Source of the DNA: Nemertoderma westbladi
Taxonomy: Eukaryota; Animalia; Xenacoelomorpha
Assembly (NCBI GenBank): GCA_032718475.1
Contig: JAUCBJ010006956.1
Location: forward strand, 1 to 64,000
Length of the DNA stretch: 64,000 nt
Direction: 5' to 3'
The notes beneath the pieces were generated by a model. It searched no databases. It saw nothing but the letters and a program-made list of their open reading frames with translations, and had not been told where the DNA came from. Position 1 is the stretch's first letter. The number at the start of each line of letters is the position of its first letter. This document shows positions 22,426-49,088 of the stretch, piece by piece. The translations under genes and the position numbers were made by a program.

Positions 22426-22596
22426 TGTAAAACTGATTTTTATCTATACTTTGTTCCTATACCGTTATTCCTATACTGGTATTCCTATACTGCTGTACCT
22501 GATCTATTACCACCTCAATTATTGAACTTTCTGACATTTTGATATAAACTTATTGTTTTCATTATTTATTTGGAAAGGGGTATTTTGGCTGGAACA
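22426..22596 (+). repeat. 5' LTR of element 1 (171 bp)
   Basis: Identical to 28285-28455 by eye. Confidence 0.97.
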
Positions 22597-22611
22597 TTCT
22601 TCGAACCGGAT
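22597..22611 (+). promoter_or_regulatory. Primer-binding site, tRNA-Tyr-like (lacks the TGG)
   Basis: TTCTTCGAACCGGAT resembles TGGTCCTTCGAGCCGGAT, the complement of the eukaryotic tRNA-Tyr 3' end. Confidence 0.6.
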
Positions 22612-22922
22612 AACTAAAAAAATGCCTAATGGAACGGATGCGAAAAGGAAATAGTATACCTTCGACGTTGTGACATCCAGACATCACTGCAATCTGCAAA
22701 TAATAAATTGTCTTCGGTACCGGTCTTGACGGCACTGGTATGTTCTACTAAAATATAGGCTACTGTCATACCATACTGTAACAATTAAATAATACCGGTC
22801 ACCAGTCTGCCAGTACCGGTATCTAACCGATAAATTACCGGTACGGTACCAGTACGGTACTGGCCCTACGGTCCAAAGTTGTACAAACTAGACCTACCCG
22901 GCCTTCCGGTACCTGCCAAACT

Positions 22923-25900: not shown

Positions 25901-28265
25901 GCTCTATATACCAGCCAAGCTTACCCGTCGTGAGCTCTTGAGGGTCATTTCCTTTGTATTTGACCCTTTAGGATTAATTTGCCCTTGGACTTTGAGAGGG
26001 AGACTCCTATTACAAGATTCATGGAAATCAGGGAAGGGATGGAATACTCTGGTAGAACCAGAAATTGAACATTCCTTTAAATTATGGGTCAATGAATCCT
26101 TAACTACTAATGTTGTTGAGTTTCCACGTTGTATTAACTTAAGTCCAACTACTACCTTACATATTTTCTGTGATGCTTCTATTCTTGCTTATGGCTTCTT
26201 GATCTATGTTGTTAATCCAAACTCTATACCTTTGCTATTCTATGGCAAATCTCGTGCAACGCCTTTAAAACATAGACCATCAATCCCAAGATTGGAACTA
26301 TTGGCTTGCTTGCTTGGTGCACGATTTGCTAATCATATTGTTATGAAACTTTTCAAACCATTTAACACATTCTTTTGGAGTGATTCCTGTTGCGTACTAC
26401 AATGGATACGTAAAGGACCTACAAAAAAGGATATCTTTGTCCACCGGCGAATTGAGGAAATTAATGGAATTGTTGACCCAGGACAATGGCGCTATGTTTC
26501 TACTCTTGAAAATCCTGCCGATATTCCTTCAAGGGGATCAAATTTATTACCCCTGTTATCTAACAAACTCTACCATCATGGCCCACCATTCCTATCTAAG
26601 GCAATAGATGAATGGCCAAAGGAACCATCACCTCCTCCTCAATTAATTATTATTGAAGCACCTCCAGCTTTGGATCTTGATGGATGTCTAGATATTAGAA
26701 AATATTCTAATTTTGTGACATTAGTTAATATAGTTTCATGGCTTTTACGATTTGTCAACAACTGCCGTAAACCTATTACGTCCCATAAGGAGTGCCTTTC
26801 ATTCGCCGAAACTAATTATGCGCTATTATTATTAATTAAGTCTGAACAATGGAAATGTTACAGGAGTGAATTTATGCATCTTCAGGAGCATTCCTATCTC
26901 CCTAGAACTTCTACACTCTGGCGATTTCATGCAGTAATTAACGATGGGATTTTGGTAATGTGTCCCCGCACCGGTGATTCGACACTCCCTATACTCCCTA
27001 AATCAAGCTATCTAACTCGTTTAATTATCCAATATTATCACAGTAGCCTGATGCATCAAGGCCCTGAAGCTACATTAGCTCTGATTCGTCAAAAATATTG
27101 GATTCCAAAAGGACGATCACTTGTTCGACACATAATACATGATTGCTATAGATGTAAACGCTATCAAGCTCAACCCTGCCAACCACGTGAGTCTCACCTT
27201 CATCCCTTTAGGATTACTGCTACAATGCCATTCTTATGTACGGGAGTGGATTTTTTCGGACCACTATACTTGTTTGATGGTGAAAAGGTATATGGTCTAC
27301 TTTTCACTTGTTCTTCCACACGTGCAATACACTTGGAGGTTGTTGAGGAAGCTAGCGCAAAACATACCCATCTTGCTTTTCGAAGATTCTTAGGTCGACG
27401 TCTCCCACCTATGTGGCATGTCAAGTTCTACTCAGATAATGCAAAAACTTTTTTAAAACTTTCAACTATGCGCTTTCCTTCCCACTCCATAACATTTACT
27501 TTCATACCCGTTCGATCTCCACACTGGGGCGGCTGGTGGGAAAGGATGGTAGGCATAGTAAAGAAATGTTTAAAAATAACTTGTCATAATCAAGCTTTTA
27601 CTCTCATTCAGTTGGTGACTGTATTTGTGGAAATTGAATCAGCTGTTAACAGCCGGCCAATTACGGCATTGTCCAGCGATCTGGATGATTCCAAACCATT
27701 AACACCATCTCATTTCCTGTTCTGTCATACTTCCGATACTGATAGTATTGACCCTGCAGCGACTAATTGTCCTGATAACCTACGTAAGGCTCTCTTACTT
27801 CGAGATAAGGTTTCACGATCTATTTGGAAACTATGGTCTACTGAATACCTTGCGTCACTAAAATGTTGGAGAACTCCCAGTCGAGGGACTAGTAATATAC
27901 CTGAAGTAGGTCATGTGGTATTGGTGAAACAAACTGGCAAAGTCCCAATTCCGCGAGGTAAATGGCCACTAGCACGTATATTGGCTTTACATCCAGGACG
28001 GGATGGATCAACATATTCAGCTGATATACTACTTAATGGTAAGAAGACGAACCGTGCACTAAACTACCTCATTCCTTTGGAATGTGATGTAACCTTTAAT
28101 GACACCCCTAAAGTTAATGATAGTGGCATACCCAATGTTATGGTTAGTGTCCCAGATCAACAAACTCGAAAGGACAAAACTGAAAATAACCTTAATTCTA
28201 AAGACAATAGGACTTATTATATTTCGAGATATGGGCGACGAGTAAATCATTTCAAAAACCCATAG
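22923..28265 (+). CDS. BEL/Pao gag-pol polyprotein (1780 aa)
   Basis: DUF1759-like PTFDGDYLLWRPFWDQF; Cys-His knuckles ending KKHHTLLC; protease YLDDGS; RT LYSDD; RNase H HIFCDAS...PRLELLA; integrase GVDFFGP/SDNAKTF/WWERMV; C-terminal WPLARILALHPGRDG. Confidence 0.97.
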   Translation: MSLPGSPTRNRGGKAAIGDDNEIRRRIEFLKRNRTTERTKAQKLITDIKVFWDQSEVDIDADELAYNIEVAEQYRKNLNTIDSELIELGYSVETSSYDRDLHKTIFKSTRVLNRVERAEQHTHSTTSEKSQSDSGGGAGTKGLPKISVPTFDGDYLLWRPFWDQFEALIHNRTSLTNIERFVYLRSCLVGDAKDSLGGLSLTATNYENAIALLKRRYGNPHLLIGMYASRLCALPIIQSNDLKGFRGIIDSFEAALREIQQLAIEITSPKSDGEMLSTDKGKSNDLTSLLLAPLLLQKLPVDMVLTWNRSHAVERFNLEPLLLFINTELESLESVAYGSSNSYTSTVGTTVRSSTHFNRKNASGSVASTTALYTSTMETSKKIVTKCPACKSSPVHSLRNCVGFLSKDIDQRCNIVKLTKLCKNCLGPHPTHLCTSEGTCSNCGKKHHTLLCFRSKGLIPTNKDSVGESASNKLPPSTSASKQASNDFTAKKSFSPKGPTNFYNNPSNSCVDTSKINNSRNNPIFIKLALGYITPPDSTEGYLIHIYLDDGSKRSYIREDLSTSLSLPSQDTHIMTTGSFGGYYTTQEADHVNFKLYSQFNSEPIDLSAWTTETLCPPMQQEYFHSLPPQLTHIQQWADIFDGGERTVSLIIGADYIWQVTNFIRTCPNMPAIIDTFFGTVLSGPAIGQQYNTPTSTDNVSMLITEPIEVTNLWNLEAVGVKGEELYCDPYIPPERSIEDPTHYRVRLPFKGTKRPISNYKIICRQQYHTMSKLNISEAEIYTTKMDKLWSDDIIELATSSHEEGFYLPHHLARRDTKPRVVFNGSSCDSAGISLNSCLDSGPNLLSNLVDILLRMRFYSHIITADIAAAYHQVEVHPEDRMWLKFLWKTNTYQFVRVPFGITPSGFLLHSTIQHHVNTYGNTEFVREFMESLYSDDVMKSSNNRHELNHFLQSAIELLQGAGMELKPVLNPKKILGVCLNNNNDTFSIDLSKLYIPAKLTRRELLRVISFVFDPLGLICPWTLRGRLLLQDSWKSGKGWNTLVEPEIEHSFKLWVNESLTTNVVEFPRCINLSPTTTLHIFCDASILAYGFLIYVVNPNSIPLLFYGKSRATPLKHRPSIPRLELLACLLGARFANHIVMKLFKPFNTFFWSDSCCVLQWIRKGPTKKDIFVHRRIEEINGIVDPGQWRYVSTLENPADIPSRGSNLLPLLSNKLYHHGPPFLSKAIDEWPKEPSPPPQLIIIEAPPALDLDGCLDIRKYSNFVTLVNIVSWLLRFVNNCRKPITSHKECLSFAETNYALLLLIKSEQWKCYRSEFMHLQEHSYLPRTSTLWRFHAVINDGILVMCPRTGDSTLPILPKSSYLTRLIIQYYHSSLMHQGPEATLALIRQKYWIPKGRSLVRHIIHDCYRCKRYQAQPCQPRESHLHPFRITATMPFLCTGVDFFGPLYLFDGEKVYGLLFTCSSTRAIHLEVVEEASAKHTHLAFRRFLGRRLPPMWHVKFYSDNAKTFLKLSTMRFPSHSITFTFIPVRSPHWGGWWERMVGIVKKCLKITCHNQAFTLIQLVTVFVEIESAVNSRPITALSSDLDDSKPLTPSHFLFCHTSDTDSIDPAATNCPDNLRKALLLRDKVSRSIWKLWSTEYLASLKCWRTPSRGTSNIPEVGHVVLVKQTGKVPIPRGKWPLARILALHPGRDGSTYSADILLNGKKTNRALNYLIPLECDVTFNDTPKVNDSGIPNVMVSVPDQQTRKDKTENNLNSKDNRTYYISRYGRRVNHFKNP

Positions 28266-28284
28266 TGTTTTCGACGTGGGGGTA

Positions 28285-28455
28285 TGTAAAACTGATTTTT
28301 ATCTATACTTTGTTCCTATACCGTTATTCCTATACTGGTATTCCTATACTGCTGTACCTGATCTATTACCACCTCAATTATTGAACTTTCTGACATTTTG
28401 ATATAAACTTATTGTTTTCATTATTTATTTGGAAAGGGGTATTTTGGCTGGAACA
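28285..28455 (+). repeat. 3' LTR of element 1, preceded by a short G-rich PPT (GTGGGGGTA, 28276-28284)
   Basis: Identical to the 5' LTR; followed by TSD TTTAC. Confidence 0.97.
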
Positions 28456-28589
28456 TTTACTATTATTAGCTTATTTCGCATTTATTGATAAAGGGGGATG
28501 ATGATGGCTAGGGTGACATAAGTATCTGAGTGTGTGCTCTGTGCACAGATATCCCCATTGGTGACATTGCATCCTTTGCTTAAATCAAG

Positions 28590-30809: not shown

Positions 30810-31496
30810 TCTTAGGAGGCGACTTCAATGCAAGGCAAGATATTGACGGCAACGACAAAACAACAGCGCTTAACGAAGTCTTGGAAAATTATGATTTATC
30901 ACACTTCAGTCTAACCCAGTAGTAGAACCAACCTATATCAGTGACAACGGTAACAGCACAATCGATTTAGTTTATGCGAACAAATTGCCCGAGATTGTCC
31001 GAGGTTCTCGCATTAAACAGCACGGCAAAGGCCGTTCAATCGGTAAGAGTGGCTCTGGGCGTCTCCAAGCGACAATATAAGAATCGCCTTAGTGATAAAC
31101 TAGAAAATATCAACGGCAATCGGAGGAGAAACTCATAGGAACGGCAGAAAATGAACCGTATAAATGTTGCAAGAAAAATAAACAGCAAACAAGCTGCCCT
31201 ATAACTCTGAAAACATGGGAAGACCATTTTAGTTTACTTTTATCGTCTAATGATATTCCTACAGACCAACTAGATGATAATTTAGTAGACGAATTCGAGA
31301 CGACAATCTCGTCTCGAGTTTCCTTATGAGTTCCCCCCGTTTACTGGGGAAGAGGTACAATCAATTATTAATGATAAGCCGATAGGAAAGTCTGGGGGAC
31401 CGGATTATGTCCCACATGAGCTGCTGAAGGCTGCACTACCAGCTACCCCGTGGACCACCTTATTTAATATCTGTTTATCAACTGTCACTTTAGTAT
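30810..31496 (+). pseudogene. LINE remnant, left part, interrupted by BEL element 2
   Basis: GDFNA endonuclease-like motif near 30820, STIDLV near 30955, and GPDYVPHELLKAA...WTTLFNICL directly before the LTR. Confidence 0.7.
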
Positions 31497-33102
31497 TGTT
31501 GCCGTTATCCCAACACCAGGGGGGAAAAACGCCGATGCTGGAGACGTGACTTTACAGACCACTGAGCCCCGGCCAGTCACCGGATATTGATTTTGGAGAA
31601 GGAATGATTTCTGAGATGCAGGGTTGCGGTTGAGAAAAAGCTGCATTAGTTGGATATACTCTTTAATGTAACTGAACTCTGTTGAACCTTGTTGAAACCC
31701 TGATTAAGAATAATTTTGGGCTTCCCCAAATCAATATACACCAAATATTCACAATAATTATACACGATAATATAAATCCCTACAGTATATTATTTAATTA
31801 CCCACTGTTCGCTCAGATTTTAGCCTACCTAATGTTCCCCAGATTTTCCCTCGGTCCTAGTCTTAGTGCCGTAGTGTCGGTGTCGGTCGACCCTGTCGCG
31901 TGTCCGTTCCACCCCTCACGAACCCCGAAGGGAACGATCATCGAGAACCAGCACGGCTTGGCTAAGGGTCGGTCCAGTCGGTAGACTCTGTCGCGTATCC
32001 GTACCACCCCTCTCGAACCCCGAAGGGTTCGGTCATCGAGAACCAGTACGGCTTGGCTAGGAGTCTGCCGTGTCGGTGGACCCGTTCGCGTGTCCGTTCC
32101 ACCCCTCACGAACCCCGAAGGGTTCGATCATCGAGAACCAGAACGGCTTGGCTAGGGGTCCGTCGTTTCATCACAGAAACCCAACCACCTAGGCTTTCCG
32201 AGTCCCTTTCAGGCTCGTAGTCGCTTCGGCAGCCGAGAAACTGCTCCGAACAGTCGGTAGGCCAGTAGAGTCTAGTCGAGTCTAGTCCTTTGTCTTTCGA
32301 CCCCATCGCGTGTCCGTTCCACCCCTCACGAACCCCGAAGGGAACGATCATCGAGAACCAGTACGGCTTGGCTAAGGGGTCTGTCGTCGGTTCCCGTCGC
32401 AAATCCCAGTACAAGCAGTCAGCGTTCCGAGTTCTTTTCAGTCTCGTAGTAGCTGCCGTTGACCAGAGACCGCTAAGGGTAGTTCTCGTCAAACCCGTCC
32501 TGTGGCCAGCCCTTTCGCATGTCCGTCCCACCCCTCGCGAACCCCGAAGGGATCGGTCATCGAGAACCAGTACGACTTAGCTCAGGGGGCAGTCGTTAGT
32601 TGGCCACCCATTCGCGTGTCCGCTCCACCCCTCACGAACCCCGAAGGGAACGATCATCGAGAACCAGAACGGCTTGGCTACTAAGGGGCCGTCGTTTCCC
32701 GTCGCAAATCCCTGACACAAGCAGTCAGCGGTCCGAGTTCTTTTCAGTCTCGTAATGGCTGCTGTTGGCCAGGGACCGCTAAGGGCAGTCCTTGTCCTTT
32801 AGGCCTGGCGCATTACCAAATCCACCCCTACAGGCAGCAGGAAGTTGGCCAGGGCCTAATAGTACTCAGGCTAACCTGAATACTGCTTGCATTTTCCACC
32901 CCCCCCCCCCTGGCCCTTATAACTATGAAATTATTCCCGTACCCTGTAAGTTGCCCCAAAGTTCGCCCATAAATCGCCCCCAGTTTATTGAATGTGCCCA
33001 AAACCCATGGTCCCGCACCCAGTAGTAATATCGGAATAATCAATTTTAATAAAATACAAAAATATTCAACTCGCGTTATGGAAAGTTGAAATACCGCGAA
33101 CA
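31497..33102 (-). repeat. 3' LTR of element 2 (1606 bp)
   Basis: Matches 44251-45806 with about eight substitutions and indels of 1, 6, 39 and 4 bp. Confidence 0.97.
31889..32690 (-). ncRNA. Array of six ~82-89-nt structured RNA modules (kink-turn capped by a cUUCGg hairpin) in the LTR
   Basis: Conserved core TTCTCGATGAYCGWWCCCTTCGGGGTTCGHGAGGGG on the minus strand; each copy is closed by a different complementary basal stem. Confidence 0.7.
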
Positions 33103-33111
33103 GTCCCCCCC
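33103..33111 (-). promoter_or_regulatory. Polypurine tract of element 2
   Basis: GGGGGGGAC directly before the TG of the 3' LTR on the minus strand. Confidence 0.8.
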
Positions 33112-33267: not shown

Positions 33268-35868
33268 CTATTTCTTTCTCTGATACGCCTTTCGTCTCTT
33301 CGCCCGTCGACTCTCATCGATCGCTATGGCTGGTAGAGGAGCGTCCACATCCATCGTGAGTAACGCTTCGGCTTGTCTCCTGGCGGCTCTTCCTTTCGAT
33401 GGCATAGGGATCATGTCGGTTCGTCTTTCCAACTCAGACTTGCGTGTCTCTAGGAACCACTCTCCGTCACCGAACTCCTCTTTATACGAGTATAATCGTC
33501 TAATGACTTCAAATGGACCGAATAATCCGGCGCTCAGTAGCAGATCCACGTAATGGAAAGGTAGCGTGGCCGACGTGTGAAGGCGTTCCGGGAAGGAGAA
33601 ATATCCGCACGCCATCTCCTGCGCGATATTCCGAGCGTTTCTCCGAACCTTGGTCTTTAAGTGGCTGTTTGCGTATGTTTCAAACATGACCATATTTCCC
33701 ATAGCGGTAACGTCTTTGGTTGGACATTTGATATAGCAGCGGGGGCTAGATGAATGTCCACGGAAACCGCACGTGGTGCAGAGGTTATAAAGGATCGGAC
33801 AGACGGAAACATCGTGGCCCGATGTCGCGCAGTATGGGCAATAGAGTATCCCGAGGAGCTGGAGGCATGAATCGGTAACCCGATTCCTTCTGCCGCGTGG
33901 GCACTGCTCCGAACCACAGTCGCCGCATACCTCCAACTGCATCTCTCGACCAGGAAATATCGGAATCGGGACGCCGACGTAGTATTCGAGTCGTCGGTCG
34001 CTCTTCGGAATATTCTCGGTGGTCGGTAGCCCGCGGAATGCTAGGCTTTTGCGTAGTAGGTTCTCGCTCCGATAACCTTCTTTGTGTCCCGCTGGTCTTA
34101 ACTCGGATGACCGTTTCTGGTGGTGGATCCATTCAGTTTGCTCGGCGTACCAACGGGTTAGTCGCATAGGGTCCTGAGGAATGGCGGGTGTAGTAGCCAC
34201 CGCTGGTCGGCGAAGAGGTGCCGGGGTTTTAGACGGAGGGATACCGAGGAGATCGTCGGGGGTCGGCGCATCGCTGGGGCCCTCCTCGATCAGTATCGCT
34301 GCGCGGGTCCGTTGGTGGCTGGTACTCGGAATCTCCGACGACCAATCTTCGCCACCCGGGAAAGGATACGGGGATAACCGTTGGCATATGTCGCCGAAGT
34401 CGCTCAATGCAGCTGTAGTGGCTACCTCCCTCGCGGGGCTACCGGAGCCGCGTGGGGTGTAAACGCCTGCTCTCTTCATCGGTTCGGCTGAGGCAACCCG
34501 TTTGGCGGCCGGTCCATACGCGGCCTCCGGCTCGAGTTGTCGCTTCGGGGTGGAGAGTAGAACACCCTCGTTTAGCCATATCTCTTCCCCTTCCGAGGAG
34601 ATCAGAGGCTCCTCCGCACCGAGAAGTTCGGTAATCGTAGGGATGTCGTAAGGTCCGCTCTCGTCCCAGGAATCGATAACGGCGAGCGTTTTAGTCTCTC
34701 CCGGTGCGATGTTCTCGACCGCTTTGAATGCGTGGTGTATGACCTCGTTCCAGTCGTAGTCGACGAAGGAAAGGGGGACCGCCGTAATAAGGTTATCGAG
34801 AGTTCTACAGATAAACTTAGCGACGGTGTAGCATTCCATAACGACGTAAACGTAGTTCCGTCGATCGGGATTCTCCCATCTTTGGTGTATCGTCCACTTC
34901 CGATCAACGTCCTTCCATCGACCCTCTCGCTCGCTCTTTATTTCTAATCCCGGGTATCCACCGTATATTTTATTATAGTCCCGGAATTTCTGGGGTTTGA
35001 AGTCGATACCGCCGTTGAGCACAGCGAGGTAGCCGATCCCTGATTTCGTCGGTCTCACCTCTTGGAATCCTCGCATGAACTCGGCGAATCGTAACCAGGC
35101 TAGTAGCGTTTGAGTGTCAATGCAATGGCTAAGGGCGTTGAGGTCGTCTCGTCGGTTTCTTCCTGCAGGAGCGTTCGCGTAGTCGTTCCGGACGTCCGCC
35201 TTGATATCCGACCCGATTTTAATGACGTCGAAGTCGAAGAGGATCTTTTGGATTTCCGGAGGCAGCAACCAGATCGCTCCGGCTGCCTGCACTTCCTGTC
35301 TGGGTGTCGGGAATATTCGGCACACCAGTACCAAACCGTCCAGGGTTCCGAGGACGACGACTAAGGATCGACCGTATTCTTTCGCCCCGTACTTTTCCTG
35401 GTAGTCGTCGCGGTTTTGGATAATCGATACGCGTTCCTCTCGAAGCGTCGCCGTACACTCCGACAGGTTTCCCCAGTGGGCGAGGTACGTACTCTTGTCG
35501 TCGACGAAACTTTGACATCTCGCCAACGTAATCGCTTTCGAGGTGGGCGTCGCGTTTCCCTCGTTGTCGTAGATCAAACATCGGGATCTGTAGACGCTCT
35601 GCCGGAACGTTTCCCAAAACGACGAATCGTCCCCTCCGGTTGCCTTTGCGTTCCGAGTTCTTTTCAGTCTCGTACTAGCATCGGCTAACCGGAGGGCTCG
35701 TAGATTCTTAGAATCCGGTCCCTCTCGCCCGGTGAATTTAATGACTCGCACGTTCTCATTTAGCAGGGTGCTCCAATTTGTATCGAAGTCAGGGGATCCG
35801 GGTTGCGAATATTCCAGTAGATCTGTCGTGTTACGTAATTCGCCGATAATTTGGCGATTTGGGTCCAT
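33268..35868 (-). CDS. Accessory ORF2 (866 aa): DEDDy-type 3'-5' exonuclease-like domain, low-complexity linker, CCHC zinc knuckles, basic C-terminus
   Basis: ExoI-like IYD101NE103; LPPEIQKILFDFDVIKIGSDIKAD225 (ExoII); CIDTQ; ExoIII-like RWENP...Y341VVME345; CPYCATSGHDVSVC and CTTCGFRGHSSSPRC; RRAKRRKAYQRKK. Confidence 0.8.
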   Translation of the reverse strand: MDPNRQIIGELRNTTDLLEYSQPGSPDFDTNWSTLLNENVRVIKFTGREGPDSKNLRALRLADASTRLKRTRNAKATGGDDSSFWETFRQSVYRSRCLIYDNEGNATPTSKAITLARCQSFVDDKSTYLAHWGNLSECTATLREERVSIIQNRDDYQEKYGAKEYGRSLVVVLGTLDGLVLVCRIFPTPRQEVQAAGAIWLLPPEIQKILFDFDVIKIGSDIKADVRNDYANAPAGRNRRDDLNALSHCIDTQTLLAWLRFAEFMRGFQEVRPTKSGIGYLAVLNGGIDFKPQKFRDYNKIYGGYPGLEIKSEREGRWKDVDRKWTIHQRWENPDRRNYVYVVMECYTVAKFICRTLDNLITAVPLSFVDYDWNEVIHHAFKAVENIAPGETKTLAVIDSWDESGPYDIPTITELLGAEEPLISSEGEEIWLNEGVLLSTPKRQLEPEAAYGPAAKRVASAEPMKRAGVYTPRGSGSPAREVATTAALSDFGDICQRLSPYPFPGGEDWSSEIPSTSHQRTRAAILIEEGPSDAPTPDDLLGIPPSKTPAPLRRPAVATTPAIPQDPMRLTRWYAEQTEWIHHQKRSSELRPAGHKEGYRSENLLRKSLAFRGLPTTENIPKSDRRLEYYVGVPIPIFPGREMQLEVCGDCGSEQCPRGRRNRVTDSCLQLLGILYCPYCATSGHDVSVCPILYNLCTTCGFRGHSSSPRCYIKCPTKDVTAMGNMVMFETYANSHLKTKVRRNARNIAQEMACGYFSFPERLHTSATLPFHYVDLLLSAGLFGPFEVIRRLYSYKEEFGDGEWFLETRKSELERRTDMIPMPSKGRAARRQAEALLTMDVDAPLPAIAIDESRRAKRRKAYQRKK

Positions 35869-36416
35869 ATTTACGATTATATCCGTTACAAATTAGTTCA
35901 GTTAATTATAAGTCCAGAAAGTCTGAAACTATAGCGATAGCAGAATAATTCAGTTTTTTATTTAATTCAGTTTATTAATAACATTGCTATATAGGCATCT
36001 ATCATCTTATTGCTAATACATTCAGCATTTACAGTTACTATAGCTATACATTAATATCCAACCAGTTTTTTATGACTTTTTTGTCCTTTTCTTTTTTCTA
36101 ATTCTTTTCTTTAGACCTTTTTATACCTTTTTTTTTTCTTTTTTCATTTCATTATTATTTCATCTCATTTAATTTATTTCCACATATTTCAACACATTTA
36201 TTTCCACCATTTATTTCACATTTATTTATTTCCACATCATCATTGGGTTTATAGCCCCCCGGCTATCATCATTGGTTATAAGCGCAGCACCAGGGTGCGC
36301 ATCATTTCATTTTCATCAGCATACGCGTCATCATTCAGGTTTATAGCAGAGTTGTCTGATCCTTTTCATCGTTTCCAACTATATTCAATCATTTTCTTTG
36401 GTTAATCTTTGTCGTG

Positions 36417-36842
36417 GAAGGGGTGTTACGCGGCAATCTGGGATCTACAGCTGGACTCGTTACACCGCCTACGCCCCAAACTGCGCACGTAACGGACAAT
36501 GAAGACGCTGGGAGTGAAGTCACGTGGATGCACCAGGGACCCACCAGAATAACACTCCCAACAACATAAAGCTCAGTCGACGAAGTCATGTGGGATGGGG
36601 TTACGCAACATTCTGGGATCTACAGCTGGACTTGTTACACCGCCTACGCCCCAAAATCCACGCAACGGTCCCACCAGAATAACGCGACTGAGAACATAAA
36701 ACCCTCTATCGTCGAAGTCATGTGGATGCACCATGGACCCACCAGAATAACGGGATAGAGGGGGTGTTGCGCGGCAATCCAGGATCTACAGCTGGACTCG
36801 TTACACCGCCTACGCCCCGAACTGCGCACGCAACGGACAACA
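36417..36842. repeat. Three ~80-bp internal direct repeats between pol and ORF2
   Basis: GGATCTACAGCTGGACTYGTTACACCGCCTACGCCCC core in copies at ~36420, ~36597 and ~36761. Confidence 0.85.
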
Positions 36843-37111
36843 TAACATACTGCAATGAATACAATGAATTCCACTTCAAATCTTTTCCATTTCCAATAAT
36901 CCAATATCGTAGGTCCTGATGACCAAAATCAGGGTAAACAATGCATAAACGACCCTGCGTCAGTCGAAACATCTGCAGGGTGACGCTGGACTCCACATAA
37001 CACACGAGGAAACACAAATACCATTGCGTGGTTACAGTTGGTTTAAGGGGGTCCATAATTCGTTGTCGATAAATCACAGTTTAAAAGAGTTTGTCAACAT
37101 GATGAGAAGGG

Positions 37112-37330
37112 TTACACGGGTTTGTAATTGTCACCAATGTCCACAGCAGGATCTTGAGTAGGGATCTTATCACCTCTCGTAGAATCACCGCTATCATTGC
37201 CTTCAAGAAGGCACAGCCTCTGGATAGGGCGTTGGTAGTGGCCCTTTGCCGTTCGTATCGTCACAGTCCTCGCAAGTCCGTCTTTGCTTGGGTGTATGGT
37301 CACGACCCGCGCCACAGGCCAGTGAACGCG
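37112..37330 (-). CDS. Frameshifted C-terminus of element 2 pol (integrase C-terminal DUF5641-like region)
   Basis: Alternative frame reads HWPVARVVTIHPSKDGLARTVTIRTAKGHYQRPIQRLCLLE, the canonical BEL pol end. Confidence 0.85.
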   Translation of the reverse strand, partial: RVHWPVARVVTIHPSKDGLARTVTIRTAKGHYQRPIQRLCLLEGNDSGDSTRGDKIPTQDPAVDIGDNYKPV

Positions 37331-40300
37331 TCTTTGAGATCTTCTTTAACTAGTACCATGTCGCCAATTGCGACGTTCCGGTAGGTGTTGTTCCATTTCC
37401 TCCTGGTCCGGAGGGTTATGAGGTACTCATGGGCCCAAATTCTCCACCAATGCGCTGCCAACGCTTGGGCCTTTTTCCAGTTTGTATGTTTTGTGATCTC
37501 GTTGGGATCCGGGAACATGGTTTCCGGGAGAACGTGGGTTTTGGGTCTCCCCAGTAAGTGGTTAGGAGTGAGGGGCTCCAGGTCTGTGGGGTCGTCGCGG
37601 ATAGGGACAATAGGTCGGTTGTTCAGGGTAGCCGTGATCTCGCAGAATGTTGTGCGGAGGGTGTCATGGGTTACCCGGGTATCGCCTAGAGCGACGCGCA
37701 TGGATCGTTTCACTAGGTCGATCAGTTTCTCCCATACCCCGCTCCTATGGGGTGCTAAGGGGGTCTGGAAGTGCCACTGTATCTGGTGTTCCTTCCAGAC
37801 TTGGGATGCGGTGTTATCGGTAAACCATCCCTCGATCGCCTCTCTAAGTTCTCTTTCTCCTCCCACAAAGTTTGTACCATTATCGGAATACATGTGGCGG
37901 CATGTCCCGTTGTTCGCCACGAACCGACGCAGAGCGTTGATGAATGCGTGTTGTGTCAGATTTACCACGATATCTAGGTAAATTGCCCTAGACCTTAGGC
38001 AGGTGAAGATGGCTCCCCAGCATTTGATGTTGGATCGTCGTTCAATAACCGTGAACGGTCCGAAACAGTCCACTCCGGTGACGTAGAATGGTGGGGAATC
38101 CGCTTGTAGACGGGTGGCTGGTAAGTTGGCCATCTTTTGGGTGATTGGTGGCGCTAGGTAACGTCTGCAGGTGAAGCAACGTTTCAACACTTTCCGGATC
38201 AGTGGCTGGATGTGGGTGATCCAATATCTTTGTCTTATATTAGCTATAATCCAATTCTGTCCTGCGTGGTGGTTGTCCTCGTGACATTGTAGAATTAATA
38301 GCTTAGCTAGTGTCGACGTTCCGGGCAGAAGCGCCGGGTATTTAACCTCATATTCGACCGGGGCGTTTGCCATCCGGGTATTCAGTCGGATCAGTCCGTC
38401 CTCTCCCATCATTGGTCTCAGTTGGTAGACTGGGCTGTCCGGTTTCAACGTTTTGCCCGCACTAAGTTGTTCCCATTCATCGGGGAAACTTTCTTTCTGG
38501 ACATATCTAACAATACACTTCTCCGCGATAATGAGTTCTTGTATATTCCGTTGAACTATCGGTTTGTTGTTTTTCCACCGTAGGAAGTTGCGAAGTGTTA
38601 TAACGTGGTGGACGAGCCGTCTCATGGATGAAGTTCGCTCGATCAACCGATGTAAAGATGCCGCTAGTTGAGTGATCGTCGCGACGTTATAGTGCCTGCC
38701 CGAGTCCTTTGCAGGCTCAGTCAGACAACTATAAATTTCCACCGCGTTGCTTCGATGGATTTTACGGATCTCTATATCGTCCTCGGAGTATTTTCCGCTA
38801 TCGAGCTCGGGGTCGAATCGGGTACTCCATGTTAACTGTGGCTGCCGTAGGAATTCCGGGCCTGTAAGCCAGAGTTTACTTTTACCGAGTTGTTTTGGGG
38901 TGGCGCCTCGGCTTGATAAGTCCGCTGGGTTTTCCTTCCCGTTCACGTGATGCCACTGTTCTCGGCCGGTACACTGTTTAATCTCCGTGGCTCGGTTTGC
39001 AACAAATGTGGTGTGACGCCGTGATGGAGAGTGGAGATAATAGAGAACTATACTCGAATCTACCCAGAAGTGTTGAGATTCTATGGGGATCCGTAGATTC
39101 CGCATGACCATGCGATTCTGTCTTACTGCCCAAACTGCAGCTTGTAGCTCGAGTCTCGGGATCGTTGCTACGAATTCCCCGGATACTGTCTTTGCTTTGG
39201 AGAATAAGAAGCTTGTATCGCTGTTTCCATCGTTACTTAGTCTCCGTAGGAAGGTGACTACGCCAATTCCGGTATTCGAAGCATCCGAAAATGTGTGGAG
39301 CTGGAAGATATCGGTGGGCAATTTATCGAGGAAGAACGGTCTAGGTATCCGCATAAGATGTAGGTGTTCGAGCTGCTCCGTCCATTTTCTCCATTTGACG
39401 CTGAGGTATGGGGGGAGCTCTTCGTCCCATCCCAGTCCTTCTATCCACATTTCCTTAATCAGGTTCATTCCGGCCAAGGTTACTGGAGATATGAAATTTA
39501 GTGGGTCGAAGATGGCGCTTTTTAACGACAAACATCCCCTTTTTGTCATAGGCTTGGGTAGGGGTTTATATTTGAAGATGAATTCGTCTGATTCTATGTC
39601 CCATTCAATCCCAAGTACACGATGTTCCACATCCTCCGAATACATTTTGTTATTTTCCAGCCGGATGTCCTCCGGAAACTTTTCCATAAGTGTTTTGTCG
39701 TGGGATCTGAACTTCACGAGCGGAAACCCTCCTTTCTTCAGACATTCTACCATCCCCATTGCTAGCCGATATGCCTCATCCACATTATCCGCGGCGGCGC
39801 ATCCGTCGTCCACATAGAAGCATCGTTGAATGGTTTCTATGACGGTTGGAGGGAACTCGTTTTCGCACATAGTTGCTGTCCTCTTTAGCATGTCACTGCA
39901 TGCTACCGGCGAGTCCTTAGCGCCGAAGATCCTGACGACCATACGCATTACGTCTACGTCCTTGATCGTGAGTTGGCTAATCTCCTGTTGAGTAAGCGTT
40001 TTATCCGTCCATAGGATACGTAGACAGTCCGAGTCTCTTGGTAACGTACGAACTTGATGAAACATGGCCTTGATGTCACAGGTGAATGCTACCCGGTTTT
40101 CCCTGAACCTGATCAATACGCCGATGAGTGTACTATATATGTTGGGTCCCGTGTAAAGCTGACTGTTTAGGGATTCGCCCTGGTACATAGCGGCAGCATC
40201 ATTTACCACTCGGATTTTCCCACCTTTGCGGGCTTCTACTACATAGTGGGTTGGGAGATAATATGTTCTTTCACCACCTTGCAGTTCATTCCGTGGTACC

Positions 40301-43300
40301 ATTTCTGCTAATCCATCATCGAGATATCCTTGGATTACGGTATTATATTTCTCCTTTATCTCGGGTTGGTCATTCAGCCGGCGTAGAATCCCTTTAAGTC
40401 GCCTAAGTGCCATGCTGGCGTTGTTTGCCATTGGTTTGTTTGGATCCTTCCATAACATAGGTGAACACCAATGTCCGTCTTTAAACGTGGCCTGGTCGAG
40501 AACGTCCATACAATATTGGTCCTCTTCGGATGGGTTTTCGTCCTTTTCCGCGAACTCCTGGGTCTCCAAATTAAAATATTTCGTCATCTCTCGTTGGGTT
40601 TTCTCGGTTTCCAGAAACAAATCCTCGTCAAGATCCGAAGCTGAGCAATAACCCACAGAGGTTACATTCTCTTTAATCTGACATTTAGGAAGGTAGGTAT
40701 AGGTGTCCGTAGTTTCCTCCTTAATGCCGCAGAGTGTCCATCCCATTATTGTTCGTTCAGCATAAAATCCATCATCCTGGTTTATAGATCGAGCGATATC
40801 TCCGGTGGGGATGTGTAGTTCCGGTGTATCAAGTCCGATCAGTAGGGTGATACGGTTCACGTCCAACTGCGGACACCTCAGGTCTACATCGTCTCGGTCC
40901 AATTGTATGAGGGGGGCGTACTCGGCTGATTGTCGGAACCGCACCCGGAGGTCTGTGTGTACCAAGGCGTTCTTGATGGTTAACTTAGCCGTTTCGTAGC
41001 CCTTCATCACTCCTTCCATCTGGAGTTGTACCTCCCCGGACTCTACTTCTCTGTTATCGGTGATGGTTTGTATGGGCCGTTTACAAGGTTCATATTCTAG
41101 GCCGAGTTGCTCGAGGAAATCCCGGTCGATGATGGTTCCGTCAGACCCGTTATCGAGGAACGCGAGTGTCGTCAAAGATTTGCCGACTCCTTGGATCCTT
41201 ACTGGGATTACCTTTGCGAAAACCATGTAGCGGCGATTTATAAGATTAATCGTGGCCGAAATATTGGTTATTTGTGGTGTATCGGTGGAGATTTTAAACG
41301 GGTTGGTTTCTCTCCGTTGGGTTGTCCGGGTTCCTTTGAAGATGTGGTTTGTTTCTCCTCTTCGCCTGGCTTCGATCCGAAAGGGGAGGGTAGTAAAATC
41401 GAAGTTCGCGGGGATGTGGAGGAGCGTGTGATGGCGTTGGTCGTTACAGACAGCACAGCATGATCTTTGGTCGCACTCCCGAACATAGTGACCTGTTCCA
41501 AGACACCGGAAGCATCCTCGGTGTTTCATTATCGCCTCGAAGCGTGGGACGAGTTCGGCGAACTGAAACTTTCTGCAGAATTCCACTTTATGTTTCTCCC
41601 CACAGAAGAGACAGAGTAGGGAATTTGTGGTGCCTTCCCTTTCGGGTGCCCAACTCGCGAGATAACATGCCCATTCCTCGGCGGATGTCGGTTCCTCGTA
41701 GTCTTCGTCGTTGGAATCCTCGGCCATGGTGATGGCCATCGTACTCACTGGTGGGGGGCGGAATCTCGGTTTCGGAGGGGTTATCTTACTCCTGGAGTTG
41801 CTCTCTATTCCGTCCAACTTTGCGAGACTCTGTTTTGAAAACATCGAGTCATTCATGGCTTCGGAGATATCGTCCAGGAATGCCGACATTTCAAGGAAGC
41901 TAGGATCTCGATCTGGATGTCTGCGCCGGAGATCTACACATTTATAAGCCCACTTACTTTGTAGCCATCCGGGGAACTTCTTGGCGATCTGTCGGAGGTT
42001 TAGAATGTTGTTCACCTGGTCCTCCTTATTTAAGGGTTTCAGAGTATAGTAGGCATCCTTCATAGAGTCGGAGAATTCCTGTATGTTCTGTGGGTCCCCT
42101 AGTGATCCCGCGTCCTGTATCAGTCTCTCTAGAGTTTTATTAATTATAGTTCCGGTATTTCCGTATCTTTTATCCAGAGTTTTCCATGCGTCATAGTATG
42201 CCTCATGAGAACCTCCTTCAAAACATGCAATAATTCTGCGTGGTTTGTCACCCAGGTATTGCGATAAATATACCAATTTCTGTGCGTCGGCTATGTCCGT
42301 TGATCCGATCTGCGCAAAGAACCGTTTCTTGAATCTGAGGTAATCGACGGGATCTCCTTCGAAGGTGCGAATCTCCATCTTAGGCATGGCAAGGCGGTTC
42401 TCCAAAGCCCGGATGATGCTGACGTCGTCTGAACTGGAGTGACTCGGAGGGTTATAGTTATTGGCACTCACTCCCATACTTGATGGATCAATAATAGGTG
42501 GAGTTTTAATAATGACGCGGCTACGAGTTTGTGGTGTTGATGTAAATGGGTTGTTCGATCGGGGAGTGGCGTCCCGTTCCGAGTCCTTTTCAGGCTCGTA
42601 CTTGGGTACACTCGCTGTCGTGGTGTTGGATGGGAAATAAGGTTCCTCATTCTTTAGCGTAGCCGGTGGGGGATGGAACACCGGGGCTTGTGCCGATAGC
42701 GTAGACTGTTTGGTAGGCGGGATCTCGGGTTTCGGAGGTTTCGCCGCTGTTGGTGTAAATGACTTTTCTAACTCCGGTACCGGAATTGGTTCATATTCCT
42801 GATCTATATCCCTTTCCCAGTCCTCGTAGAGTTGAATATCTCGTTCTATAAGTGCGGCTTCATATTCTGCGAGTTTTGCAATATCCGCATTCTTTTTGTG
42901 GATGAGAATTGCTTGGGCCTCGGCGTGTTGTTTACGCATTTCCGCTTCCCATTTACGTTGTTCGATCTCTCGTTCGGCCTCTCGTCCGCGTTGTTCGGCC
43001 TCCTGTTTGCGTTGTTCGGCCTGTCGTTCGTCCTCTCGTCTATGTTGTTCGGCCTGCCGTTCGGCCTCCTGTTTACGTTGTTCGGCCTGCCGTTCGGCCT
43101 CTCGTCTATGTTGTTCGGCCTCCTGTTCGCGTTGTTCGGCCTGCCGTTCGGCCGCTTGTTCGGCCTCTCGCTTTTGTGTTTCGGCGGCTAATACATCTTG
43201 CTCGGCTTGCAGTTGAATATACTCATCTTCCATCCGAGCTTTGAGGGCTAATGCCTTCCGTTCTCGCAGTTGGTCTCGGAGTGGCGGCGCCCCTTGAGAA

Positions 43301-43812
43301 CTGCGCGCTGAGCCGGATATCTCGCTCCTAGCGCTGGAGTGCTGATTTCTAACGGACCCCGTTCTCTTTCGATGTACTGCTGTCCTGATGCTGGAGGATC
43401 GTACTGATTCCGCGTCTGTTCTTTCAGCCCTCTTGTAATACTGTTCCTCATAGCCTCTCACAAGGCTGAGGGTCCTCCGGTGTTGTTTGCGGAACCCATC
43501 TAGATGTACAACGTGTTCTTCCAACTTGGGGTAGTTTTCCAGATCGGTGGGGGGAACGAGCTCTTGGTACGCCTGTATCATTCTTTCGTACCGCTGTAGG
43601 ATATTTCGGATACTTTGAAGCTGAGTTTGTACCTCATTGAGGGGGGTTTTGACTCCCTTGAGTTGTTTCTCCATCCGTTGATACGCTCGGGTTACTCCGC
43701 CTTTAAGAGCCCCTAACCGACGGGTCATGTTCTTGACGTTTGGTACCTCGTCGTCTTCCGAGTCTGTGTGGTGATCCATCTCGTCGGTATCGGATACGTT
43801 ATTTGTTGTCAT
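37300..43812 (-). CDS. BEL/Pao gag-pol polyprotein (2170 aa to the premature stop)
   Basis: Gag with EQ/R-rich coiled-coil repeats and three Cys-His knuckles (CLFCGEKHKVEFC, CFRCLGTGHYVREC, CAVCNDQRHHTLLH); protease FLDNGS; RT FYVDD; RNase H FSDAS...PRLELQA; integrase GVDCFGP/SDNGTNF/VWEKLI. Confidence 0.97.
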   Translation of the reverse strand: MTTNNVSDTDEMDHHTDSEDDEVPNVKNMTRRLGALKGGVTRAYQRMEKQLKGVKTPLNEVQTQLQSIRNILQRYERMIQAYQELVPPTDLENYPKLEEHVVHLDGFRKQHRRTLSLVRGYEEQYYKRAERTDAESVRSSSIRTAVHRKRTGSVRNQHSSARSEISGSARSSQGAPPLRDQLRERKALALKARMEDEYIQLQAEQDVLAAETQKREAEQAAERQAEQREQEAEQHRREAERQAEQRKQEAERQAEQHRREDERQAEQRKQEAEQRGREAEREIEQRKWEAEMRKQHAEAQAILIHKKNADIAKLAEYEAALIERDIQLYEDWERDIDQEYEPIPVPELEKSFTPTAAKPPKPEIPPTKQSTLSAQAPVFHPPPATLKNEEPYFPSNTTTASVPKYEPEKDSERDATPRSNNPFTSTPQTRSRVIIKTPPIIDPSSMGVSANNYNPPSHSSSDDVSIIRALENRLAMPKMEIRTFEGDPVDYLRFKKRFFAQIGSTDIADAQKLVYLSQYLGDKPRRIIACFEGGSHEAYYDAWKTLDKRYGNTGTIINKTLERLIQDAGSLGDPQNIQEFSDSMKDAYYTLKPLNKEDQVNNILNLRQIAKKFPGWLQSKWAYKCVDLRRRHPDRDPSFLEMSAFLDDISEAMNDSMFSKQSLAKLDGIESNSRSKITPPKPRFRPPPVSTMAITMAEDSNDEDYEEPTSAEEWACYLASWAPEREGTTNSLLCLFCGEKHKVEFCRKFQFAELVPRFEAIMKHRGCFRCLGTGHYVRECDQRSCCAVCNDQRHHTLLHIPANFDFTTLPFRIEARRRGETNHIFKGTRTTQRRETNPFKISTDTPQITNISATINLINRRYMVFAKVIPVRIQGVGKSLTTLAFLDNGSDGTIIDRDFLEQLGLEYEPCKRPIQTITDNREVESGEVQLQMEGVMKGYETAKLTIKNALVHTDLRVRFRQSAEYAPLIQLDRDDVDLRCPQLDVNRITLLIGLDTPELHIPTGDIARSINQDDGFYAERTIMGWTLCGIKEETTDTYTYLPKCQIKENVTSVGYCSASDLDEDLFLETEKTQREMTKYFNLETQEFAEKDENPSEEDQYCMDVLDQATFKDGHWCSPMLWKDPNKPMANNASMALRRLKGILRRLNDQPEIKEKYNTVIQGYLDDGLAEMVPRNELQGGERTYYLPTHYVVEARKGGKIRVVNDAAAMYQGESLNSQLYTGPNIYSTLIGVLIRFRENRVAFTCDIKAMFHQVRTLPRDSDCLRILWTDKTLTQQEISQLTIKDVDVMRMVVRIFGAKDSPVACSDMLKRTATMCENEFPPTVIETIQRCFYVDDGCAAADNVDEAYRLAMGMVECLKKGGFPLVKFRSHDKTLMEKFPEDIRLENNKMYSEDVEHRVLGIEWDIESDEFIFKYKPLPKPMTKRGCLSLKSAIFDPLNFISPVTLAGMNLIKEMWIEGLGWDEELPPYLSVKWRKWTEQLEHLHLMRIPRPFFLDKLPTDIFQLHTFSDASNTGIGVVTFLRRLSNDGNSDTSFLFSKAKTVSGEFVATIPRLELQAAVWAVRQNRMVMRNLRIPIESQHFWVDSSIVLYYLHSPSRRHTTFVANRATEIKQCTGREQWHHVNGKENPADLSSRGATPKQLGKSKLWLTGPEFLRQPQLTWSTRFDPELDSGKYSEDDIEIRKIHRSNAVEIYSCLTEPAKDSGRHYNVATITQLAASLHRLIERTSSMRRLVHHVITLRNFLRWKNNKPIVQRNIQELIIAEKCIVRYVQKESFPDEWEQLSAGKTLKPDSPVYQLRPMMGEDGLIRLNTRMANAPVEYEVKYPALLPGTSTLAKLLILQCHEDNHHAGQNWIIANIRQRYWITHIQPLIRKVLKRCFTCRRYLAPPITQKMANLPATRLQADSPPFYVTGVDCFGPFTVIERRSNIKCWGAIFTCLRSRAIYLDIVVNLTQHAFINALRRFVANNGTCRHMYSDNGTNFVGGERELREAIEGWFTDNTASQVWKEHQIQWHFQTPLAPHRSGVWEKLIDLVKRSMRVALGDTRVTHDTLRTTFCEITATLNNRPIVPIRDDPTDLEPLTPNHLLGRPKTHVLPETMFPDPNEITKHTNWKKAQALAAHWWRIWAHEYLITLRTRRKWNNTYRNVAIGDMVLVKEDLKDAFTGLWRGS

Positions 43813-44000: not shown

Positions 44001-44250
44001 TCCCTGTTAACAACTCTCCAAATATGTGATCTGCCGACTACGAGTTGGTTAGATCGAGTTTGTTGATTAATTAAACCACGACTTTGTCTCAACTCAAATA
44101 CCAGAGTTTCCTCGTAGTGGGTGCTGGCAAGCACATAGAGAGTTTTGAAGAGTATTGAAGGATTCTCAACTTCCACCAGTTGAAGTTGACCGTAATTATT
44201 CTTAATTTTGACACCCTGTCAAAATTAACCGCATTAATTATTCTTAATTT

Positions 44251-45806
44251 TGTTGCCGTTATCCCAACACCAGGGGGGAAAAACGCCGATGCTGGAGACG
44301 TGACTTTACAGACCACTGAGCCCCGGCCAGTCACCGGATATTGATTTTGGAGAAGGAATGATTTCTGAGATGCAGGGTTGCGGTTGAGAAAAAGCTGCAT
44401 TAGTTGGATATACTCTTTAATGTAACTGAACTCTGTTGAACCTTGTTGAACCCTGATTAAGAATAATTTTGGGCTTCCCCAAATCAATATACACCAAATA
44501 TTCACAATAATTATACACGATAATATAAATCCCTACAGTATATTATTTAATTACCCACTGTTCGCTCAGATTTTAGCCTACCTAATGTTCCCCAGATTTT
44601 CCCTCGGTCCTAGTCTTAGTGCCGTAGTGTCGGTCGACCCTGTCGCGTGTCCGTTCCACCCCTCACGAACCCCGAAGGGAACGATCATCGAGAACCAGCA
44701 CGGCTTGGCTAAGGGTCGGTCCAGTCGGTAGACTCTGTCGCGTATCCGTACCACCCCTCTCGAACCCCGAAGGGTTCGGTCATCGAGAACCAGTACGGCT
44801 TGGCTAGGAGTCTGTCGTGTCGGTGGACCCGTTCGCGTGTCCGTTCCACCCCTCACGAACCCCGAAGGGTTCGATCATCGAGAACCAGAACGGCTTGGCT
44901 AGGGGTCCGTCGTTTCATCACAGAAACCCAACCACCTAGGCTTTCCGAGTCCCTTTCAGGCTCGTAGTCGCTTCGGCAGCCGAGAAACTGCTCCGAACAG
45001 TCGGTAGGCCAGTAGAGTCTAGTCGAGTCTAGTCCTTTGTCTTTCGACCCCATCGCGTGTCCGTTCCACCCCTCACGAACCCCGAAGGGATCGATCATCG
45101 AGAACCAGTACGGCTTGGCTAAGGGGTCTGTCGTCGGTTCCCGTCGCAAATCCCAGTACAAGCAGTCAGCGTTCCGAGTTCTTTTCAGTCTCGTAGTAGC
45201 TGCCGTTGACCAGAGACCGCTAAGGGCAGTTCTCGTCAAACCCATCCTGTGGCCAGCCCTTTCGCATGTCCGTCCCACCCCTCGCGAACCCCGAAGGGAT
45301 CGGTCATCGAGAACCAGTACGGCTTAGCTCAGGGGGCAGTCGTTAGTTGGCCACCCGTTCGCGTGTCCGCTCCACCCCTCACGAACCCCGAAGGGAACGA
45401 TCATCGAGAACCAGAACGGCTGACACAAGCAGTCAGCGGTCCGAGTTCTCTTCAGTCTCGTAATGGCTGCTGTTGGCCAGGGACCGCTAAGGGCAGTCCT
45501 TGTCCTTTAGGCCTGGCGCATTACCAAATCCACCCCTACAGGCAGCAGGAAGTTGGCCAGGGCCTAATAGTACTCAGGCTAACCTGAATACTGCTTGCAT
45601 TTTCCACCCCCCCCTGGCCCTTATAACTATGAAATTATTCCCGTACCCTGTAAGTTGCCCCAAAGTTCGGCCATAAATCGCCCCCAGTTTATTGAATGTG
45701 CCCAAAACCCATGGTCCCGCACCCAGTAGTAATATCGGAATAATCAATTTTAATAAAATACAAAAATATTCAACTCGCGTTATGGAAAGTTGAAATACCG
45801 CGAACA
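44251..45806 (-). repeat. 5' LTR of element 2 (1556 bp)
   Basis: Matches 31497-33102; module array at ~44636-45420 with one module truncated by a 39-bp deletion. Confidence 0.97.
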
Positions 45807-46215
45807 AGTATCATCTTGGAAAACAAGTATTATGCAAATTTTGTACAAGGGTAAAGGTTCGCGATCTGATCCCGATTGCTATAGAGGTATAGCTCTACTC
45901 TGCAATGCATTTAAAATACTAAGTAGTCTGGTAGAGAAACGTCTAAGCCATAACAATTTGGCTACATGCCCGGTTTATCTACAGCAACCCACAGCGCAAT
46001 GTATTAATCGTATATATAGCAACCTAACGTTGCCTAGACAACCACTATACGCGGTTTATATAGATTTCCGGAAAGCGTTCGATAGCGTTCCACGCTACTC
46101 CTGATAATCGAAGCGATTTTAAGTACAAATTACATACAAATCTATGACGGTTTAAACAAGTCTGAAATAATACAGCAAGTACGTGGTGTCCTCCAGGGGG
46201 ACAGTCTGAGCATCT
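45807..46215 (+). pseudogene. LINE RT remnant, right part, continuing 30810-31496
   Basis: SSWKTSIMQILYKGKGSRSDPDCYRGIALL...YIDFRKAFDSV and GVLQGDSLS motifs. Confidence 0.85.

Positions 46216-47510: not shown

Positions 47511-49088
<1,578 letters not shown>

Follow-up and report, generated by a model that had tools for sequence, protein, structure and literature searches.

A third gene, lying downstream of gag-pol in a long terminal repeat (LTR) retrotransposon of the Bel/Pao type from Nemertoderma westbladi (Xenacoelomorpha), apparently encodes a DEDDy-type 3′–5′ exonuclease joined to a zinc-knuckle domain. The element is located on the minus strand of contig JAUCBJ010006956.1 (assembly GCA_032718475.1), within positions 1 to 64,000; this stretch of 64,000 nucleotides is referred to below as the window. 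The gene, open reading frame 3 (ORF3), occupies the env position, and its product is tentatively proposed to act against host small-RNA silencing. The evidence comes from the layout of the protein, from three distant relatives, from its putative active-site residues and from the variation among copies.

ORF3 is a single frame on the same strand as gag-pol, opening with its first ATG, at 35868, and closing with a TAG at 33268; it begins 1.4 kb past pol and ends 165 nt short of the 3′ LTR. The two knuckles have the forms CX2CX4HX4C (residues 677–690) and CX2CX4HX5C (697–711) and follow a cluster of cysteines at positions 648, 651, 656 and 668; lysine and arginine make up 25% of residues 791–866. 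An original prediction, made from the sequence alone, had described an intact ATG-initiated frame downstream of pol in the same orientation, the residues D101/E103, D225, Y341 and E345, one canonical and one near-canonical knuckle, the Cys cluster and the basic tail; all are present, and the active-site residues are now backed by the three relatives. The sequence has no N-terminal hydrophobic signal segment. The predicted lack of a signal peptide and of transmembrane (TM) segments was borne out with one qualification, since residues 168–186 reach a 19-residue hydropathy of 2.08. This segment is read as core strands and not as a membrane helix, because it aligns with a conserved two-strand block of the relatives and forms a beta-hairpin in both low-confidence structural models. 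An env glycoprotein has a signal peptide and a membrane anchor; ORF3 has neither and is not env. Its features are those of the third genes of bdelloid rotifers: an ORF past pol, on the same strand, without a TM segment or a coiled coil. Derivation of the knuckles as a recent copy of those in the element's own gag was ruled out (best E 0.32). The best score of the C-terminal domain in the Atlas language-model search was 0.87 (DUF8363, zf-CCHC, AIR2-like), which is a lead only.

An exhaustive phmmer search with ORF3 residues 57–406 against 1.84 billion protein representatives (cut-off E 0.001) yielded three proteins, P0006 (E 1.3e-6), P0007 and P0008, with 31–32% identity, all singletons from European Nucleotide Archive assemblies. 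P0006 aligns with ORF3 in two blocks, residues 168–303 (pairwise E 6e-16) and 645–783 (pairwise E 3e-11), and its residues 498–614 are 31% identical to the zinc domain; the linker is not conserved. Because P0006 matches both the nuclease and the knuckle blocks, the exonuclease–linker–knuckle layout appears to be a conserved protein design. The two knuckles of P0006 are canonical, are 20 residues apart, the same spacing as in ORF3, and resemble those of the retroviral (human immunodeficiency virus) nucleocapsid (NC) protein with an E-value of 1e-4. Within the length windows searched, a word-indexed homologue search confirmed none of 6819 candidates, and searches of the same kind from the family alignment and from the P0006 domain recovered P0006 alone. 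Among metagenome contigs, none of 145 pattern matches was confirmed as a relative of ORF3 and none of 85 as a relative of pol; none of four pol matches in viral contigs was confirmed. Recent capture of ORF3 from the host is not supported by these comparisons, because the nearest relatives make up a separate deep family at ~31% identity.

All four family members, at that level of identity, retain the acidic residues D-x-E, D/E and Y-x3-D/E. The position of ExoI was examined with a gap-free profile of 23 residues from the three relatives, taken around or up to their first D-x-E and judged against 2000 shuffles. The profile scores best at D101 (20.7, runner-up −1.7), a score that one of the 2000 shuffles reached; with the D and E columns removed, position 101 is still the best, but 95 of the 2000 shuffles reach the score. 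The upstream W/L-x2-F-x3-V helix is in register with the relatives when D101 is taken as ExoI, and an E-INS-i alignment recovers D101/E103 with an insertion of ~50 residues after E103. The default MAFFT alignment apparently misplaces ExoI because of this insertion; loss of the motif, with I150/N152 or D154/D155 in its place (residues 150–157), was rejected, the scores there being −14 to −16 versus 20.7 at D101. The ExoII residue, D225 in IKIGSDIKAD, corresponds to D, E and D in the three relatives and aligns with ExoII of EXD2. In ExoIII, Y341-x3-E345, the Tyr is kept, and the acidic residue is E, E and D (Asp in P0008) in the relatives. Glu is thus the fourth acidic residue in three of the four members and is therefore a family trait, not decay of the window copy.

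The signals that place ORF3 among DEDD nucleases are individually weak and mutually concordant. Residues 161–356 of ORF3 score 73.7 bits against a profile derived solely from the three relatives. In the Atlas search, 25 of the 30 neighbours of ORF3 are PF01612 (DNA_pol_A_exo1) clusters, the best at 0.92, and the top three (0.93) are unnamed; scores of at least 0.9 also arise for 4–10% of shuffled proteins. The P0006 domain matches PF01612 at E 0.038–0.2, under the curated cut-off, and the family profile is collinear with EXD2 (6k17) at ExoII and ExoIII in a weak match (E 0.6, ~15–17% identity). ORF3 shares with EXD2, the WRN exonuclease and Nibbler the patterns LP-x6-L-x-D-x3-K-x-G at ExoII and W-x9–11-Y-x3-acidic at ExoIII, its K-x-G context matching that of EXD2. 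It differs from these proteins in the ~50-residue insertion, in Glu for the last Asp and in the fused zinc knuckles, and it is without Mut7-C, helicase or membrane anchor. No Pfam match to the HRDC domain of the Rrp6/RNase D subgroup was obtained, and the absent match does not exclude such a domain. From the motifs, the language-model search and the weak profile matches, we infer that the nuclease part belongs to the DnaQ (EXD2/WRN-type) group. The predicted WRN/EXD2/Mut-7-type DEDDy domain has thus gained in relatives, PF01612 neighbours and weak EXD2 collinearity, while the DnaQ fold itself did not emerge from modelling.

Variation was assessed in DNA runs of one organism, three in number and each from a different study; one of the runs is possibly the source of the window. 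They cover all of the 30 bins into which ORF3 and the 3′ LTR were divided. The contigs aligned to this region number 7466, 2976 and 122 per run, with identities from >99% down to <90%. Among the best-supported 40 of 357 variant sites, 32 substitutions fall in ORF3: 21 silent, 11 replacement, no stops and none at motif residues. The silent share, 21 of 32, compares with 24–28% expected (P 1e-6 to 3e-5), with a rough ratio of replacement to silent rates (dN/dS) of 0.16–0.2; for residues 93–350 all three listed differences are silent. None of the best-supported 12 of 38 indels lies in ORF3. The ORF3 protein is under purifying selection, because the differences between copies are mostly silent. 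The original prediction had staked itself against absence or disruption of the frame in other copies; ORF3 is present there. Separately, in a contig of run X4, 1,158 bases (divisible by three) are missing at 33653–34812, on thin evidence, with 29 letters on the short side and in this one run; such a skip would drop the linker and the knuckles and retain the nuclease.

The element spans 45806 to 31497 and is 14,310 bp long, as determined by self-comparison and direct reading. Alignment of the 5′ LTR with the 3′ LTR gives 1548 matches, 8 mismatches and 4 gaps (99.5% identical); the element is a young, multi-copy Bel/Pao element. It is attributed to Bel/Pao because gag-pol carries Peptidase_A17 (E 8e-38), DUF1759, Integrase_H2C2, DUF5641 and a YVDD motif. 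As in Belpaoviridae (Semotivirus; PMC8742986), a gag-pol with protease, reverse transcriptase, RNase H and integrase in this order, including the Pao peptidase A17, DUF1759 and DUF5641, lies between LTRs accompanied by a polypurine tract and a target-site duplication. However, Belpaoviridae are 4.2–10 kb long with LTRs of 0.2–1.2 kb, whereas this element measures 14.3 kb with 1.6-kb LTRs, its third gene does not resemble env and its primer site lacks complementarity to a tRNA-type end. In the window copy, the gag-pol frame closes prematurely within the integrase C-terminal region (37300–37330), and DUF5641 is represented in this frame by positions 2–50 of 94 only, the remainder of the motif being in a different frame; this copy is probably non-autonomous, though its ORF3 is intact. 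The element is inserted within a decayed non-LTR reverse transcriptase gene, the frame of which resumes on both sides (31196–31496, 45812–46111). A second, unrelated Bel/Pao element (22426–28457, plus strand, 25% identity), with identical 173-bp LTRs and an intact 1,812-codon frame, has no third gene, and ORF3 is therefore accessory.

According to the ICTV (International Committee on Taxonomy of Viruses) profile (PMC8742986), Belpaoviridae are primed by tRNA-Arg or tRNA-Gly at an 18-nt site. Here, no TGG-led or other tRNA-type primer site follows the 5′ LTR, and no tRNA genes were found in the window. In the available text of PMC6317226, a self-primer is defined by a complement of at least 10 nt in the 5′ LTR, for a stretch starting 0–5 nt after the LTR. 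The element has a complement of 13 nt with a spacer of 2 nt, and this resembles a Tf1-like self-priming signature. The candidate self-primer is located 23 nt past the start of TATATT and 47 nt ahead of ATTAAA. An LTR complement of 13 nt was reached by two of 5000 block shuffles, and in the fold of the putative leader the primer duplex has pairing probabilities of 0.75–1.0. One further copy of the primer-site 13-mer stands 42 nt downstream, the duplication being arranged around a perfect 12-bp hairpin. As with Tf1, Tj1 and sushi, the primer site complements part of the LTR of the same element, just past a TATA-like box; in the accessible parts of PMC4600332 and PMC6317226, however, self-priming is reported for Ty3/gypsy chromoviruses and some plant copia groups, whereas here the carrier is a Bel/Pao element and the likeness is a signature in sequence. 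No self-primed Bel/Pao element in print was found in the literature searched, which left subscription journals and Repbase notes largely outside its scope.

The element also contains repeated RNA motifs. A 24-nt motif, predicted to fold into a short stem-loop with a GAAA loop, is present in eight copies (three per LTR, one in gag and one in ORF3) in differing reading frames, and did not arise in 100 shuffles; it is possibly a packaging, export or enhancer signal. Each LTR has six repeats of ~90 nt, for each of which a sense-strand hairpin capped by UUCG is predicted. The UUCG loop is invariant, and GAU-GA stands opposite GA with an adjoining mismatch, a pattern that would fit a kink-turn (an SNU13/L7Ae-type site). 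The predicted minimum is a plain bulged hairpin; in the kink-turn register, 91% of cells are paired, with covariation no higher than in shuffles. No Rfam family was matched in the element, either by the 24-nt motif or by the UUCG repeats.

The closest known counterparts of ORF3 are the DEDDy ORF3s of the bdelloid Ty3/gypsy elements Juno and Vesta. As far as the available text of PMC5408684 goes, these were acquired at least twice, are shared with Athena/Terminon elements, have the motif DEED and are discussed in connection with both 3′-end processing and silencing; the parts of later reviews consulted (PMC6431247, PMC6338049) repeat the report. Like ORF3, the genes of Juno1/2 and Vesta2/5 are described there (PMC5408684) as stand-alone third ORFs past pol, on the same strand and of the DEDDy type, without a transmembrane part and with one acidic residue changed. 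By analogy, ORF3 would work like them. Compared by description, the rotifer hosts are Juno and Vesta and the motif is DEED, whereas here the carrier is a Bel/Pao element, the motif is DEDE and the 866-aa protein has a long linker and NC-like knuckles; in the same text (PMC5408684), knuckles are placed in gag and pol only, with a Cys-His-Cys motif in the Vesta2/5 ORF3s. The Dada DNA transposons are likewise mobile elements encoding a DEDDy 3′–5′ exonuclease, but according to the accessible part of PMC3706591 it is contained within the DDE transposase, has DEDD intact and is proposed to process DNA ends. In the literature searched, no exonuclease gene in a Bel/Pao element and no precedent for a DEDE motif was found in print, and the word 'exonuclease' is absent from a survey of BEL/Pao elements (PMC3118150) and a survey of env-carrying elements (PMC13524379). 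The carrier, a Bel/Pao element, is new here, and so are the DEDE variant and its insertion, the presence of a conserved knuckle domain and the co-occurrence with a candidate self-primer. That another LTR superfamily has its own, independently shaped version of the gene, with the catalytic residues intact, the knuckle domain conserved and signs of selection, argues for recurring adaptation. The function of the rotifer DEDDy third genes has been unassayed since 2017, and ORF3 offers a concrete protein to assay.

The function that is tentatively preferred, at somewhat less than even odds, is that of an RNA 3′–5′ exonuclease acting against host small-RNA silencing. The product, presumably translated from its own subgenomic RNA, would be an EXD2/WRN-type 3′–5′ exonuclease with Glu as the fourth acidic ligand; the zinc knuckles would bring the nuclease to RNA, and it would trim or destroy host small silencing RNAs or their precursors. 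The accessory position of ORF3 argues for a host-facing role. To our knowledge, almost no counter-silencing proteins have been proven in animal transposons. Several points weigh against this proposal. The nuclease part has no relevant Pfam or PDB sequence match and does not reach the PF01612 cut-off, and PDB profile searches, whether started from whole-length alignments or from P0007, turned up no relevant match. As to the other checks that the original prediction had named, the AlphaFold models are poor, with a pLDDT (predicted local distance difference test) of 35.2 for ORF3 alone and 37.6 for four sequences, and Foldseek gave no match at E 0.001. The second AlphaFold alignment had been trimmed so that D101 was aligned (4 of 42 trims, 0 of 36 with whole relatives) and is not an independent test of the register. 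In the Foldseek-ranked set, EXD2 comes first (Z 3.2, root-mean-square deviation 4.9, 84 residues aligned), not above background, and DnaQ-family chains fill 10 of 38 rows, all with Z ≤3.2; in a wide structural search, an acetyltransferase is best at Z 3.0 and EXD2 third at Z 2.9, within background. The insertion after E103, together with the Asp-to-Glu change, could impair catalysis; many of the substitutions behind the selection estimate come from one contig; and EXD2 and WRN act on DNA too. In the part of the rotifer report available (PMC5408684), the DEDDy ORF3s have no clear tie to copy number, and the ORFs are still covered by small RNAs. A precedent for the proposed activity is Nibbler, which, according to the accessible text of PMC13269885, trims the 3′ ends of PIWI-interacting RNAs.

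Whether the domain is catalytic at all bears on a somewhat unlikely alternative, in which ORF3 serves as an RNA adaptor with weak or no catalytic activity, similar to Egalitarian (Egl) or Rev, that binds stem-loops of the element and thereby exports, localises or protects the genomic RNA. In the portion of PMC13186709 consulted, the EXD-type exonuclease-homology domain of Egl recognises RNA stem-loops, including a retrotransposon signal, that of the I-factor, and functions independently of its catalytic residues. The eight copies of the 24-nt motif with their sense-strand GAAA-loop hairpins, the six UUCG hairpins per LTR, the basic tail, the long linker and the insertion beside the active site fit such an adaptor. 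However, the whole family retains the Tyr and the four acidic sites, and this conservation at ~31% identity would favour catalysis, since the equivalent residues of Egl are dispensable. The short hairpins have little predicted stability (−2.6 kcal/mol in five of eight copies, z-scores −1.0 to +0.6), the covariation of the LTR hairpins is not above shuffles (342/500), and the motifs could be enhancer repeats acting at the DNA level. Egl is moreover a host protein that, in the same portion of PMC13186709, needs LOTUS-like domains, XAD and BicD, none of which was detected in ORF3; for the Egl/LOTUS-like domains the search was against Pfam. A complete absence of function, or an N-terminal domain with a fold other than DnaQ, is judged very unlikely: the lack of a significant Pfam, PDB-sequence or structural match and the Atlas scores reached by shuffled proteins speak for it, but four distant proteins share three motifs, correctly ordered and spaced, the weak DEDD signals agree with one another, and the 866-codon frame is open with silent-biased variation.

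The lack of a tRNA-type primer site leads to another use for the same nuclease, which could trim the 3′ end of the element's own RNA to the 13-nt duplex, making a tRNA-independent primer, or polish the ends of complementary DNA, while the NC-like knuckles help annealing. This is also on the unlikely side, to the same degree as the adaptor. Tf1-type self-primers are cleaved by RNase H, which counts against it, as do the occurrence of DEDDy third genes in Gypsy elements and the fact that ORF3 is a gene of its own, whose product would need some route into the particle. It is favoured by the missing tRNA-type site, by the 13-nt LTR complement, which has the length and placement required in the available text of PMC6317226, and by the 3′-end processing of element RNA that the consulted parts of PMC5408684 and PMC6431247 suggest for DEDDy ORFs; the Tj1 map in the accessible part of PMC4600332, however, describes Tf1-type self-priming in elements with gag and pol only. 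If true, self-primer maturation by ORF3 would add a new step to reverse transcription. A wider scheme, quite unlikely as a whole, would have a Bel/Pao lineage that dispenses with tRNA priming and uses an exonuclease and NC-like protein in the env slot to cut back and anneal its own RNA end as a primer, with the stem-loops as docking sites.

Table 1. Positions of ORF3, its predicted domains and motifs, the carrier element and other repeats in the window.
Feature	Position	Strand	Basis or remark
ORF3, 866 aa: DEDDy-like exonuclease, linker, zinc-knuckle domain, basic tail	33268..35868	−	
Exonuclease-like domain, residues ~82–356	34801..35625	−	relatives, motif profile, EXD2 alignment
ExoI D101/E103	35568–35560	−	
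ExoII D225	35196–35194	−	
ExoIII Y341/E345	34848–34834	−	
~50-residue insertion (within 104–160), ExoI to next strand; absent in 3/3 relatives	35389..35559	−	E-INS-i alignment
Pro/Glu/Ser/Thr-rich linker, residues ~411–625, likely disordered	33994..34638	−	38% P/E/S/T, 23% hydrophobic
C-terminal zinc domain, residues ~648–790: Cys cluster, two knuckles, then conserved aromatic block	33499..33927	−	
Basic C-terminal tail, possible nuclear localisation signal	33271..33321	−	P0006 tail also basic
5′ LTR, 1,556 bp	44251..45806	−	self-comparison
3′ LTR, 1,606 bp, TGT...ACA	31497..33102	−	self-comparison
Target-site duplication, upstream copy, 5 bp	45807..45811	.	matches 31492–31496 exactly
Target-site duplication, downstream copy, 5 bp	31492..31496	.	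matches 45807–45811 exactly
Polypurine tract (G7A), one base ahead of 3′ LTR	33104..33111	−	
gag-pol, single frame, 2,170 aa, Bel/Pao domains	37300..43812	−	
Non-coding spacer, pol to ORF3; AT-rich leader; degenerate tandem repeats 36414–36840	35869..37299	−	
Primer-binding position, 2 nt past 5′ LTR; 13 nt perfectly complementary to LTR	44236..44248	−	
Candidate self-primer in 5′ LTR (LTR position 1339–1351)	44456..44468	−	same 13-mer in 3′ LTR at 31715–31703
24-nt motif inside ORF3, predicted short stem-loop with GAAA loop	35651..35674	−	
24-nt motif, gag copy	42577–42600	−	
24-nt motif, starts of copies	32196, 32425, 32731, 35651, 42577, 44943, 45172, 45439	−	
Six ~90-nt LTR repeats, predicted sense-strand UUCG-capped hairpins	31881..32684; 44628–45431	−	
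Further repeats	374–1291 / 3913–4840; 5567–6333; 9743–10367; 49798–52992; 58553–59710		

The host genes of the window include an animal-like SRP54, which is apparently intron-free (47511–49088, minus strand), and PP4R3/SMEK, which has few large exons (13915–19088, plus strand). The other repeats of the window comprise long direct repeats, inverted-repeat elements and minisatellite arrays with units of 21, 19, 68, 40 and 34 nt.

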